From: a virus
Lineage: Duplodnaviria > Heunggongvirae > Uroviricota > Caudoviricetes
IMG/VR virus record: IMGVR_UViG_2645727555_000019
Direction: 5' to 3' (one strand)
Length of the DNA stretch: 11,743 bases
Position 1 is the stretch's first letter; every line of letters begins with the position of its first letter. A program made the position numbers. This document shows, in pieces, positions 1 through 3,000 of the stretch.

Positions 1-3000
1 TTCCGTTCATATGAGCAAAAGTGGTGTTGAAGAAACATCCGTTTTGTGATGTTTTTTTAATCTTTTTGGGGTTTTAATTCCTATCGATGAACGTTACGGG
101 CAATTTTCACAGAGTAGTTAAAAGCTACTCTGTGCTTGAACTCACGTAAAGTTTCACCTTCAAGTTTGAAGAAGTGTTTTTCCTCAATGAAACGACCTTT
201 GTTTTCGTGGTGATTCTGGCGAATACGAATAGCTTCTGTGCCGTAAAGGTGCGCCAAAAGTTCGGTAGTGATAACGGGGATCTGCTTGTAAGTAATCGTG
301 GAGAGTGTTTCAACAGAGATTTGAGTTGTCATAATGACGCCCTCGAGTGGTTTCTTAATAACTCACCACCGACGACGCCAATCGTCTGGTGGTGAACTGT
401 GCAGGGTTGGCGTAACCGGGAAACCGACCGGCGCGGATCTCTCCGCCCCCACACAGCCCACCATAATTCAGATGTGCGCGTGCATACGACAATAAAAAAC
501 ACGCTCGCGGCGTGTATCTGTCGCGGTCTCTATCCAGGACGCCAATCCCGACGCCAGATTTTGCTGGCGCGTGAGGAATATAGCCCCGAATAAATCATCA
601 CGTCAATCACCTTGTTTTCCTCGCACGATGTCTTAGCCACCGGATATCCCACAGGTGAGCCGTGTAATTGAAGGCTTTAACGTCAGATTCTTTTGGGATT
701 GGCCTGGGTTTATTTCTGGAACGTTTCGTTGGAAGGTAATTGCAGTTTTCACAGACTATATCGGTAATGCTTCGTCGCTGTCGTCTCATTCATACCTCCT
801 GTCGGTAAATCTGACACCCTGCTCCACAGCCCAGGAAGTTGTGTACTCAATCAGGCTTGCCATACGCTTCACGCTCATCTGCGCACTGCTTTCGCGGATA
901 TTGACGTATTCACCTTCAAGACCAGGCAAAACATCAGCTTCCTGTTTTGTCGCCACGGCATGACCGCTGATTAACAAAACTTTCCACTGTTCTGGTTTTA
1001 GCCATCTGCCGCACCACTGAACCTGTCGGGAGATATCAGCGACCATCGCGTGAAATTTGGCATTTTGATCGAGATTCCGCTTGTAATCGGTGATGCGGAT
1101 CGTAACGGGTTTGTCTTTATCGAGAGTTGTTGCAAGGATGGCGTTAATGGCGAATTGTTGCTGCTGCTTACTTCGGAGGAAGATAGTCTGGTTCATTATT
1201 CCCTCTCACTGGATTTTCCCAACAAAAAAGGAGCCGAAGCTCCTTTAGTTTCAGAATTCAAATTGTCTTGCCCGTAGGCTTTTCAGCATTGGCATGGCCC
1301 GCTGGATAACGGAACTTGACATGTCGAGACGTGTTACCTCCCTCAGTAGCGCGTCTCTGTTCTTCGTCACCATGTAGATGGTCTCAAACGCAATGTCATA
1401 CAGCTTGTTCGTGTATGAGGAGTTCAGCTCTTTCATAATGGGATACAGGTGTTTGCTGATGTCCTGGGCTTTTTCCATCCAGAGCTGCATGTAGCAAAGG
1501 AGGATGATTTCTTCGGCTGTGAATTGTGGCTGAATCTGCGGCTGCTGTTCGGTTGGTGCTGTTTTTCCCTGGCTGAAATAGCAGTCTTCCAGTTTTTCGA
1601 ATACCTCCCACGCCCGATCGGTTTCGAGCATTTTTGCGTGACGGGCTGCGCCGCGTTCTGTCCAGAGGATGAGGGAGCGGGCATTTTTACCAACTAACCC
1701 GATTGTTTCGGGTCTGTTCTTAAACTCGCGTAATTCGTTTTTTTCAATTTTAAAGTAATGCTTTCCGGGCATGAATCGCGTCGTGTTGTTCAGAAAGTTA
1801 TCAGAAATGTTTTTGATTTTTGTTCCGTAAAGGTGAGCCAACAGTTCAGTAGTAATTACGGGGATCTGGTTATAGGTAACAGGGGAAAGGTTTTCGACAG
1901 AAATTTGAACAGCCATAATGACCTCGCGTTTCGATAATTTTTACCTCGCCACCGTCAGGTGCTAATCATCGTGGTGGCGAACTGTGCGGGGTTAGCACTA
2001 CCGGTCGAAACATCCGGCGAGCCTTTCGGCTCCCCCACACAGCCCGCCATAAATCGCGAATGTGACTGTGCTTAGCGCATAAAAAAACCGCCAGCGCGGT
2101 TATGCACCGTTTCGATATCCGGGGTGCTAATCCCGACGCCAGGTTTTGCTGGCGCGTGAGGAATATAGCCCCGAACACGCGACGTTGTCAAACTGATGGC
2201 ATTGCAGATCCCTACGCAATGTAACACTATGTGTTATACATTAATAACGGAACAAAAAATGCGCATTTTTAAAAACGCCTGGTTTGAGCGACTTGCACGC
2301 AAAACAAAATATCCGACCAATCACTGCGCGAAATTGTTAAACAGGCTGATAACGGGCTTATCTCAGCAAACCTGGGTAACGGCGTTATCAAGCAACGTCT
2401 GCCACGAGTCGGTGGCGGCAAATCTGGCGGTTATCGCACAATCATTTTCTATCGCGTCGGCACAAGGGCCTTTTTCGTATATGCATACGCAAAAAATGAA
2501 CGTGAAAATATAACCGCTACTGAGGAAAGTGCATTTCGGAAGGGGCTCCTCACGTACTCAATCTAACAGATGAACAACTGGCACAACTGATTCTACAGGG
2601 TCAGTTTACGGAGGTACCCAATGAGTAAAAATTACCGCAGTGATGCGCTTGCATCCGTACATGAAATGATGGAATCGCTTCATGATATCGGCGCAGTAAC
2701 GAAACAGACTATGCGAGAATTCGATGAAACTTGTCTCCAGCCAGCGCCGGTAATGTCTCCGGAAAGGATCCGTGCACTGCGCGAACGAGAGCATCTGTCT
2801 CAACCTGTTTTTGCCAGATACCTCAACGTCAGTAAAAACCTGATATCAGACTGGGAACGTGGTGTAAAACGGCCGGGAGGTGCCGCTCTTCGCCTTCTTT
2901 CAGTCGTAGAGAAAAACGGAATCCAGGTAATATCATGATACTCCAATACAACAAAACCCGCCGAAGCGGGTTTTCATTAGAAGCACCTTTAGTTTTGCTG

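Follow-up and report, generated by a model that had tools for sequence, protein, structure and literature searches.

Short open frames in the leaders of prophage antirepressor genes probably belong to C4-type antisense RNA genes

Does the short open reading frame (ORF) upstream of a prophage antirepressor gene encode a peptide, or is it merely what a start codon happens to open within a sequence that is maintained as RNA? The question is raised twice by the window, as we call the whole 11,743-nt stretch of IMG/VR virus record IMGVR_UViG_2645727555_000019, since it carries two copies of such a leader, and an earlier note on this DNA had proposed a conserved coupling peptide resembling icd of phage P1, with conservation at the RNA level as the alternative. 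Rfam membership, a covarying structure, the covariation of its pairing segments with their targets and the lack of a coding signature together lead us to the second answer: with a probability of about 0.8, the leader ORF is the gene of a C4-type antisense RNA and not a peptide gene, in a module like P1 immI that resides in a lambdoid prophage. C4 is a known structured regulatory RNA. As it stands, the outcome is a correction and not a discovery, and it helps to avoid listing such an RNA among the leader peptides.

The leader frames and their surroundings

The leader ORF of copy 2 (1955..2050, minus strand) has 31 codons and that of copy 1 (363..464, minus strand) has 33, both starting with ATG; their translations are MAGCVGEPKGSPDVSTGSANPAQFATTMIST and MVGCVGAERSAPVGFPVTPTLHSSPPDDWRRRW, respectively. 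Coordinates, lengths and peptide sequences reported earlier agree with our ORF listing and translation. The start regions have UUAUGG(C/U)GGGCUGUGUGGGGG in common, and the longer start context AUUAUGG given before is exact in copy 1 but differs by one base in copy 2, which reads AUUUAUGG. Downstream lie the antirepressor (ant) genes, which encode in copy 2 a protein of 221 aa with ORF6N and P22_AR_C domains (1251..1916, minus strand) and in copy 1 a truncated product of 83 aa with a partial ORF6N domain (81..332, minus strand). The UGA stop of the leader ORF is located at 1957-1955 in copy 2, 38 nt 5' of the ant ATG (1916), and at 365-363 in copy 1, 30 nt 5' of the ant ATG (332), both gaps falling inside the range of 25-40 nt that had been noted.

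No Shine-Dalgarno (SD) sequence precedes the leader AUGs, as had been noted: the duplex of the anti-SD with the 18 nt upstream has an energy of +0.3 and +0.4 kcal/mol, as compared to -6.6 and -6.4 kcal/mol for the ant starts by the same measure. The length of the leader ORFs is not beyond chance expectation. When the 129-131 nt behind the leader ATG were subjected to dinucleotide shuffling, 33% of the shuffles for copy 2 and 47% of those for copy 1 contained an ORF of at least the observed length. Other frames are open over the same intervals, namely 1966..2178 (minus strand, 70 aa) and 1959..2075 (plus strand, 38 aa) over copy 2, and 329..502 (minus strand, 57 aa) and 334..495 (plus strand, 53 aa) over copy 1. 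Such observations would fit a pure chance ORF in an unconstrained leader, but this is very improbable, since the sequence is strongly constrained as RNA and the AUG is nearly invariant, as described below. Chance thus describes the open frame and not the sequence, for which it is excluded by the covariation.

C4 fold and complementary targets

Each leader ORF sits within a match to the C4 antisense RNA family of Rfam (RF01695), with isrK/c4-a1b1 before it and the ORF6N antirepressor after it. The matches, at 1970..2054 (minus strand, 75.1 bits) for copy 2 and 385..468 (minus strand, 66.7 bits) for copy 1, cover the full length of the model (1-87) and lie above its curated cut-off of 45 bits. 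For comparison, homologous leaders were collected by an nhmmer search seeded with three C4s, and four divergent leaders that nhmmer overlooked (two from Buttiauxella, one each from Marinomonas and Moraxellaceae) were read and then added by hand. The comparison covers 62 distinct leaders, with counts on 53, 52, 48 or 44 sequences in single tests; from 48 contig pattern matches, the approximately half that were due to chance, outside the Gammaproteobacteria, were left out.

The C4 architecture consists of a long closing stem around two hairpins, with compensatory changes. The comparison of 44 distinct C4s, representing more than 12 genera, shows 98.0% of cells paired and changes on both sides in 16 of the 27 pairs, whereas none of 500 shuffles did as well and slid controls reached 33-46%. 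The same structure was returned independently by RNAalifold, and each of the two window RNAs also folds into it alone (z = -6.2 and -3.9). The caveat in the earlier note that conservation may be at the RNA level is thus supported.

Two segments of the C4 RNA are complementary to sequences on either side of it. In copy 2, a' (1992..2000, minus strand, UAGUGCUAA) is located in the single-stranded junction and complements a2 and a1, and b' (2005..2013, minus strand, AUGUUUCGA) forms the loop of hairpin 2 and complements b2 and b1. The a2 target of copy 2 (1958..1966, minus strand, AUUAGCACC) lies in the ant leader just 5' of the UGA of the leader ORF, which overlies both C4 and a2, and b2 (1926..1935, minus strand, AUCGAAACGC) adjoins the ant SD sequence GAGG at 1925-1922. 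The corresponding targets in copy 1 are a2 at 374..382 (minus strand, AUUGGCGUC) and b2 at 348..355 (minus strand, AGAAACCA), the latter just 5' of the SD sequence GAGGG at 344-340. The end of b2 is found 6-16 nt 5' of the ant ATG in nearly all leaders. Across 52 leaders, a'/a2/a1 and b'/b2/b1 covary three-way: exact complements of at least 6 nt exist for a'-a2 in 100%, for a'-a1 in 98% and for b'-b2 in 94%, as compared to 3% and 14% for non-cognate pairings. Short-duplex energies of a' and b' with non-cognate leaders separate the window copies poorly, the 10-nt segments finding alternative G+C-rich partners.

The upstream targets are part of the isrK/c4-a1b1 element, which is located in copy 2 at 2081..2155 (minus strand; isrK 74.3 bits), with a1 at 2134-2123, b1 at 2116-2107 and an intrinsic terminator at 2101-2086 followed by a U run, and in copy 1 at 494..570 (minus strand; isrK 75.5 bits), with the terminator at 515-499. 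The c4-a1b1 family (RF03163) scores 47.4 and 50.5 bits, with a cut-off of 46.7, and the isrK, c4-a1b1 and C4 matches stand in the order known from P1. A promoter-like site at 2162..2191 (minus strand; TTGACA-18-TATATT, 11/12 match) would drive isrK-C4-ant in copy 2, and a similar one is present in copy 1 at 606-577 (minus strand).

The c4 RNA of P1/P7 immI has the same fold, with the 5' context gaAUU-AU|GGUGGG and 3' GCCACC as found here, and the order a1-b1-C4-a2-b2-SD is shared, the target being at the ribosome binding site of the first gene of the antirepressor operon. There are also differences from P1. In the window b2 adjoins the SD of ant itself and not that of icd; a1 and b1 form, together with an intrinsic terminator, a short RNA of their own (IsrK); the Ant protein is of the ORF6N/P22_AR_C type; and the host element is not a P1-type plasmid prophage but a lambdoid prophage, with the module in the nin region of its PR operon.

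Variation of the frame among homologues

The leader AUG is kept in 60 of the 62 distinct leaders and is also present in P1, APSE-3, phiV10, Tyrion and Kp4865-1. This conservation is real, and it is explained by constraints at the RNA level. An SD sequence is absent from all 62 leaders, the best anti-SD duplex having -1.7 kcal/mol against a median of -6.3 kcal/mol for ant.

Codon-level comparison was limited to the first 12 codons, where the frame is shared, since indels shift it further on; frameshifts among homologues set in after codon ~13. Over these 12 codons, pN/pS is 1.10 and the entropy by codon position is 0.82/0.85/0.72, the third position being the least variable. The conserved 3' arm of the stem is read in different frames by the two window copies, and all three frames are used over it among 48 variants (27/15/6). 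The homologous ORFs have lengths from 3 to 45 codons or are fused with ant, and their stops lie from -4 to +118 nt from ant, if they do not read into it. The AUG is retained even where the ORF is very short, with 14 codons in P1, 15 in APSE-3, Tyrion and Kp4865-1, and only 3 in Photobacterium. Thus, substitutions and indels ignore the reading frame, the very observation that the earlier note had named as evidence against a coding function.

A real micropeptide, icd-like or other, that acts in the cell or on Ant is therefore extremely improbable. An ATG-initiated ORF does occur in both copies and in most homologues, and the N-termini are similar (MxGxxG), but this likeness only follows from the conservation of the 5' stem arm in the RNA, and the pN/pS value, the frameshifts and the range of lengths argue against a peptide. 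The leader peptides have no match to a Pfam family at E<=0.01, and the features that generally mark a coding small ORF, an SD sequence, a conserved frame or purifying selection on codons, were not found. The only gene annotated by RefSeq under this leader is the ORF6N gene.

In P1, as here, a short ORF, icd, lies upstream of the antirepressor in a C4-controlled operon. P1 icd, the product of which is annotated in the P1 record as a cell-division inhibitor, has 73 codons, starts 3' of b2, has an SD of its own, which C4 masks, and overlaps with the ATG of ant1. In contrast, the leader ORF described here starts at the 5' end of C4, at the predicted RNase P site, stops between a2 and b2, and lacks both an SD and a conserved product. 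The window has no icd gene between b2 and ant, the SD and ATG of ant following b2 directly with no intervening ORF. Given the locus position in the P1 annotation, the absence of Pfam matches and the unconserved frame, an icd-like peptide is rejected, and the conserved coupling peptide that had been proposed is not supported.

A predicted RNase P site within the start codon

If the peptide does not explain the AUG, its position in the RNA may. The closing stem begins with two pairs formed by U and G of the AUG, with U-A in 42 and G-C in all of the 44 C4s; the A at -2 is left unpaired and hardly varies, and the ACC that follows the stem is nearly invariant as well. The motif A-2 U-1 | G+1 ... 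ACC(A/C) resembles a substrate of RNase P, and A-2 U-1 | G+1, the G-C first pair and the 3' ACC(A/C) are identical to P1, where mature c4 RNA is annotated in GenBank to begin at the G of gaattAT|GGTGGGG, i.e. between U and G of the AUG. Cleavage of the C4 precursor by RNase P is reported to occur where the closing stem begins on its 5' side (PMC5320573, citing Hartmann 1995), and the RCCA and N-1 determinants have been described (PMC12710915); RNase P may also explain the nearly invariant A-2, an explanation that is drawn from the literature. By analogy with P1, the cut in copy 2 is predicted to separate U2049 from G2048 within the AUG, and the mature C4 RNAs would span 2048..1973 in copy 2 and 462..388 in copy 1.

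From the work on P1, P7 and Gifsy-1 we infer the following mode of action, in which RNase P processes the transcript, ant is repressed at translation and IsrK acts as a competitor. A strong promoter would give rise to the short IsrK RNA that carries a1/b1 and ends at the terminator, and read-through transcripts would extend into C4 and the ant leader. The C4 part may then fold, its long closing stem enclosing the two hairpins and being followed by a tRNA-like ACC(A/C) tail, and RNase P would excise C4 by cutting the conserved AUG behind its U (A-2 U-1 | G+1). The junction segment a' and the hairpin-2 loop b' of the freed C4 of ~76 nt could pair with a2 and b2 in the leader, and since b2 adjoins the ant SD, this would block ant translation. 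The a1/b1 segments of IsrK are the same targets and may compete for C4. The AUG would then be a product of the RNase P and closing-stem constraints, and the open frame a product of the G+C-rich structured sequence. On balance, we regard the leader ORF as a by-product of this RNA gene.

Observations against a purely RNA-level role come from the homologous isrK-orf45-anrP locus of Gifsy-1, in which isrK, C4 and the ORF6N antirepressor occur at the same spacing as here. The leader AUG corresponds to the first AUG of orf45: counted from the isrK start (2155), the ATG at 2050 lies at nt 106, the homologous A in Gifsy-1 being A107, and ant starts at nt 240 from the isrK start in both loci. The ~80-nt processed 'orf45'/STnc1160 RNA of Gifsy-1 corresponds to C4. 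Two literatures are hereby joined, as 'orf45' of Gifsy-1 is the same element as the C4 antisense RNA known from P1/P7, and IsrK is the counterpart of the a1/b1 target copy. In Gifsy-1, orf45 is reported to be translated, tagged ORF45-SPA being detectable under IsrK overexpression, and to be needed for full activation of anrP: mutation of the first AUG reduces IsrK-dependent activation from 114-fold to 20-fold, and an early stop reduces it to 8-fold (PMC4825925). Ribosomes may thus start at this AUG on unprocessed transcripts.

These results agree with a coupling that is independent of the peptide, as proposed for Gifsy-1 orf45, in which ribosomes on read-through transcripts that escape RNase P would start at the AUG and melt the C4 stem and the a2 hairpin, easing initiation at ant. 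Besides the shared AUG and distances, its retention in nearly all leaders and the slightly longer opening of its frame (median 33 codons versus 27 and 24 in the other frames, with a maximum of 44 counted) would agree with such a role. Still, we regard it as unlikely. The published precedent supports coupling through a leader ORF, as suggested earlier for the window, but the stop/start overlap (AUGA) used in Gifsy-1 is missing from both copies. Gifsy-1 orf45 is a single ORF of 45 codons of which the UGA overlaps the anrP AUG, whereas the window has ORFs of 31 and 33 codons that differ in the frame in which they cross the 3' arm. Where orf45 has its second in-frame AUG, the window has GUG. The overlap occurs in just 2 of 53 leaders, those of Gifsy-1 and Enterobacter soli, which are the only ones open that far among the 13 leaders that are in the right frame for it. 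In the window the stops lie 5' of b2 and the SD, at 38 and 30 nt from the ant ATG, and ribosomes that terminate there would leave the ant ribosome binding site covered. The general lack of an SD also argues against coupling, and the AUG is equally kept where the ORF stops inside C4 after 3-15 codons. Furthermore, the Gifsy-1 mutations A107C and 119-121 also change the base at -2 of the RNase P site and the stem of C4; they hit both translation and the RNA, which suggests that the two effects were not separated.

A bolder possibility, to which we assign a low probability, is that the AUG straddling the RNase P site is a genuine selected start codon, its three nucleotides being contested by a ribosome and RNase P on each read-through transcript. 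If so, cleavage by RNase P would destroy the AUG, release C4 and turn ant off, whereas a ribosome that arrives first would unfold C4 and the a2 hairpin in cis, so that this transcript yields no repressor and ant is favored. This would be an unusual kinetic switch between an immunity RNA and antirepressor expression, a dual use of one molecule as RNA and mRNA that has been maintained from P1 to the lambdoid prophages, and the peptide would again be irrelevant.

Returning to the C4-type antisense RNA, its arrangement is also reminiscent of the CI RNA with seqA-seqC in the immunity of satellite phage P4, a comparison that was already drawn for the Gifsy-1 locus (PMC4825925). In both cases an immunity RNA is cut from the leader transcript and has complementary targets up- and downstream. 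The P4 CI RNA causes transcription termination, whereas the location of the target on the ant ribosome binding site points to translational repression in the window, as in P1.

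The leader element as a C4 antisense RNA

The element over which the short leader ORF runs, upstream of each antirepressor gene (ant), is a C4 antisense RNA (Rfam RF01695) in an isrK-C4-ant module, a known kind of element. Full-length Rfam matches to C4 lie at 2054..1970(-) in copy 2 (75.1 bits) and at 468..385(-) in copy 1 (66.7 bits), the cut-off being 45. Upstream of C4, each copy has an isrK RNA that overlaps a c4-a1b1 match (2155..2081(-), 74.3 bits; 570..494(-), 75.5 bits) and ends in an intrinsic terminator, with a near-consensus promoter at 2191..2162(-) (TTGACA-18-TATATT) and 606..577(-) (TTGACG-18-TATATT), respectively. 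The downstream antirepressor, of the ORF6N + P22_AR_C type, has 221 aa in copy 2 and is cut to 83 aa in copy 1.

For comparison, 62 distinct isrK-C4-leader sequences were assembled from an IMG/VR scan with a 27-mer from the isrK 5' hairpin (upstream and independent of the leader ORF), a looser pattern run against one genome per species, and direct retrieval of Gifsy-1, P1, APSE-3, phiV10, Tyrion and Kp4865-1. The hosts are Escherichia/Shigella, Salmonella, Enterobacter, Lelliottia, Leclercia, Buttiauxella, Erwinia, Lonsdalea, Atlantibacter, Pseudocitrobacter, Leminorella, Photobacterium, Pseudoalteromonas, Marinomonas and a Moraxellaceae MAG. When 44 distinct C4 sequences were aligned with MAFFT and scored against the Rfam structure, 98.0% of positions were paired, and in 16 of 27 pairs both sides had changed with the pair kept (156 cells with double changes). 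None of 500 shuffles attained any of these pairing measures, pairing fell to 33-46% when the partners were displaced by 1-3 columns, and RNAalifold returned the identical fold without being supplied with it. The predicted mature RNAs of the window also self-fold to the C4 structure, at -48.6 kcal/mol (z -6.2) and -44.0 kcal/mol (z -3.9), each with a 3' ACCA tail left over. The earlier note had allowed that conservation might reside in the RNA, and the covarying fold bears this out.

In the naming used for P1, the junction strand is called a' and the hairpin-2 loop b'. In copy 2, the pairing partner of a' (UAGUGCUAA) is a2 (AUUAGCACC, 1966-1958(-)) and that of b' (AUGUUUCGA) is b2 (AUCGAAACGC, 1935-1926(-)), which adjoins the ant Shine-Dalgarno sequence (SD) GAGG at 1925-1922; both targets are repeated in isrK, as a1 (2134-2123(-)) and b1 (2116-2107(-)). 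The targets of copy 1 have other sequences (a2 AUUGGCGUC, 382-374(-); b2 AGAAACCA, 355-348(-)). Among 52 leaders, exact complements of at least 6 nt occur for a'-a2 in 100%, a'-a1 in 98%, b'-b2 in 94% and b'-b1 in 69%, compared to 3% and 14% in non-cognate combinations, and in nearly all of them 6-16 nt separate the end of b2 from the ant ATG. Such three-way covariation, seen across many specificity types, gives strong comparative support to a predicted antisense role like that in P1 immI. Whereas P1 has icd, the present element lacks it and b2 is located at the ribosome binding site of ant itself, which b2 pairing would mask.

Minimum-energy folds of the full leaders are far stabler than shuffles (z -4.5 and -4.6). 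In copy 2 (1896-2155(-)) isrK forms cis pairs with the a'/b' part of C4, resembling 'structure A' of the Gifsy-1 paper (PMC4825925), and in copy 1 (312-570(-)) isrK and C4 form separate modules.

The open frame behind the AUG

ORF listing and translation reproduce both leader ORFs as first reported, with ATG starts, 31 codons at 1955..2050(-) and 33 codons at 363..464(-), and the same peptides. The copies share the start context UUAUGG(C/U)GGGCUGUGUGGGGG; the AUUAUGG proposed earlier is exact in copy 1 and one base off in copy 2. The short distance to ant was also found (UGA 1957-1955, 38 nt before ATG 1916; UGA 365-363, 30 nt before ATG 332), as was the lack of an SD, the anti-SD duplex being +0.3 and +0.4 kcal/mol versus -6.6 and -6.4 for ant. 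Each ORF traverses the C4 5' arm, both hairpins, a', the 3' arm and a2, and ends upstream of b2. As an open frame it is not above chance: when the sequence after the ATG is shuffled with its dinucleotides preserved, 33% (copy 2) and 47% (copy 1) of the shuffles contain an ORF of equal or greater length, and other frames and the opposite strand are open over the interval too (1966..2178(-), 70 aa; 1959..2075(+), 38 aa; 329..502(-), 57 aa).

The sequence behind the AUG shows no gene-like conservation. An AUG is present in 60 of the 62 leaders, and it is followed by 3, 8, 13, 14, 16, 17, 22, 23, 27, 28, 31-36, 40, 43-45 or 76 codons, or by a frame that continues into the downstream gene. Where the ant start was identified (53 leaders), the stop lies 5-118 nt upstream of it in 44; in seven the ORF enters ant, five of them as in-frame fusions, and in only two, Gifsy-1 and Enterobacter soli, does a UGA overlap the ant AUG. 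All three frames are used over the conserved C4 3' arm among 48 IMG/VR variants (27/15/6), and the two window copies themselves differ in frame there. Within the first 12 codons, the part in a frame common to every sequence and hence used for the codon tests, column entropy at codon positions 1/2/3 is 0.82/0.85/0.72, and pooled pN/pS is 1.10 in the AUG frame versus 0.79 and 0.98 in the remaining frames. No SD precedes the AUG in the 62 leaders (best duplex -1.7 kcal/mol, ant median -6.3), and the peptides match no Pfam family. Substitutions between homologues thus ignore the reading frame, which the earlier note had named as a refuting outcome, and the proposal of a conserved peptide resembling icd, the P1 gene ahead of ant1, is wrong: neither frame nor length is conserved.

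In several leaders (L003, L050, L141, L150, L151) the AUG frame lacks a stop and is fused in frame to the downstream gene, which on paper gives N-terminally extended products, for example of 229 codons in an E. coli/Shigella flexneri variant and 230 in Lelliottia nimipressuralis; a stop-less fused frame was likewise remarked for S. dysenteriae (PMC4825925). In VT2-Sakai (L176, NC_000902), GenBank has a 57-aa hypothetical protein, orf34 (389-562), upstream of ant, which crosses the same C4 element in a frame other than that of the leader ORF and places its terminal ATGA on the ant start. Its counterpart in copy 1 is the GTG-initiated 57-codon frame at 329..502(-). Probably, orf34 is another spurious ORF over a C4 RNA gene.

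The conserved AUG and Gifsy-1 orf45

The U and G of the AUG form the first two closing-stem pairs of C4 (U-A in 42/44, G-C in 44/44), and the ACC after the stem is almost invariant in the same alignment. In the P1 counterpart, gaattATGGTGGGG, the annotated 77-nt mature c4 RNA begins at the first G, which places a cut between U and G of the same AUG, and a passage in PMC5320573, citing Hartmann et al., states that RNase P cleaves the C4 precursor at the stem 5' end. Taken together, these make the motif A-2 U-1 | G+1...C72 A73 C C (A/C) look like an RNase P substrate. Consistent with this, leaders with a trivially short ORF keep the AUG equally well (P1, 14 codons; APSE-3, Tyrion and Kp4865-1, 15; Photobacterium, 3). 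The only AUG-less leaders are those of Marinomonas agarivorans (L146, UUG) and Buttiauxella ferragutiae (L149, ACG), the U-to-C change at -1 in the latter also disrupting the predicted U-A closing pair; both are natural test cases for the role of the conserved A-U.

Coupling of translation from the leader AUG to ant has a precedent in one homologue, Gifsy-1 (NC_010392), where isrK is located at 34316..34240 and a C4 match (34214..34131, 69 bits) coincides with the published orf45 (L122, 34076-34330(-)). A107 of the published numbering is the A of AUUAUGGUGGGG, exactly the homologous AUG, and the final UGA of the 45-codon frame overlaps the AUG of the antirepressor gene anrP. ORF45-SPA was detectable under IsrK overexpression, and A107C or an early stop lowered anrP activation from 114-fold to 20-fold and 8-fold (PMC4825925), so that in Gifsy-1 unprocessed transcripts may be translated from this AUG. 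However, the mutations also affect the C4 stem and the base at RNase P position -2, and the effect of translation is therefore not isolated. The stop/start overlap is absent in the window and in 51 of 53 homologues, and the window ORF stops upstream of b2 and the SD. Coupling thus ranks second for the window and is unlikely; a competition between ribosome and RNase P at the shared AUG is more doubtful still.

The Gifsy-1 paper reports that orf45 is conserved at the nucleotide level and variable at the amino-acid level, and that a processed species of about 80 nt, orf45'/STnc1160, accumulates; it likens the system to P4 CI RNA and seqA, and does not mention C4 (PMC4825925). Since orf45 coincides with the C4 match, orf45'/STnc1160 is the C4 homologue. 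Gifsy-1 IsrK overlaps a c4-a1b1 match, and part or all of the reported anrP activation by IsrK could reflect titration of C4 from a2/b2 by the a1/b1 of IsrK.

Prophage setting and specificity types

From the neighbouring genes (NinB, NinE, CII, S24 repressor, DnaC-like protein, hok/sok, Fic/Doc, RelE-like/HTH pair), both modules belong to the nin region of a lambdoid prophage. Escherichia phage PhiR12_3 has the copy 2 leader at 100% identity, and the leader was matched in 541 of 5426 complete E. coli genomes, the RefSeq annotation under it being the ORF6N gene only. The stretch from the replication genes to the ant module holds three toxin-antitoxin-like units (2196-4206): the RelE-like/HTH pair (2196-2938(+)), Fic/Doc with a small upstream ORF (2989-3717(-)), and hok/sok (Hok 3882-4094; sok RNA 4032-4206, 116.9 bits). 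The two modules stand in tandem, at 312-606(-) and 1896-2191(-), with ninB and ninE between them, and the same pair is present in IMG/VR contig L011, which is 99.7% identical to the window over nt 89 to 4214. This identity breaks off near nt 88, which indicates a joint there from a rearrangement or insertion; the copy 1 antirepressor (1-332(-)) retains 83 aa with a partial ORF6N domain, compared to 185-220 aa in relatives.

The specificity loops of the two copies differ (a' GUGCUAA and b' GUUUCGA in copy 2; a' CGCCAA and b' GGUUUC in copy 1) and each fits its own a1/b1 and a2/b2, so the modules are probably heteroimmune. In the 52 leaders (loci L001-L170), a and b specificities reassort independently, with at least 12 a-types (e.g. 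UUGGCGU, UUAGCAC, UUGGAAC, UUAGGAAC, UUUGCAC, UUGAGAC, UUGGCAU, UUGGUCU) combined with about 17 b-types, which suggests that immunity specificity has diversified in a modular way in lambdoid and other prophages.
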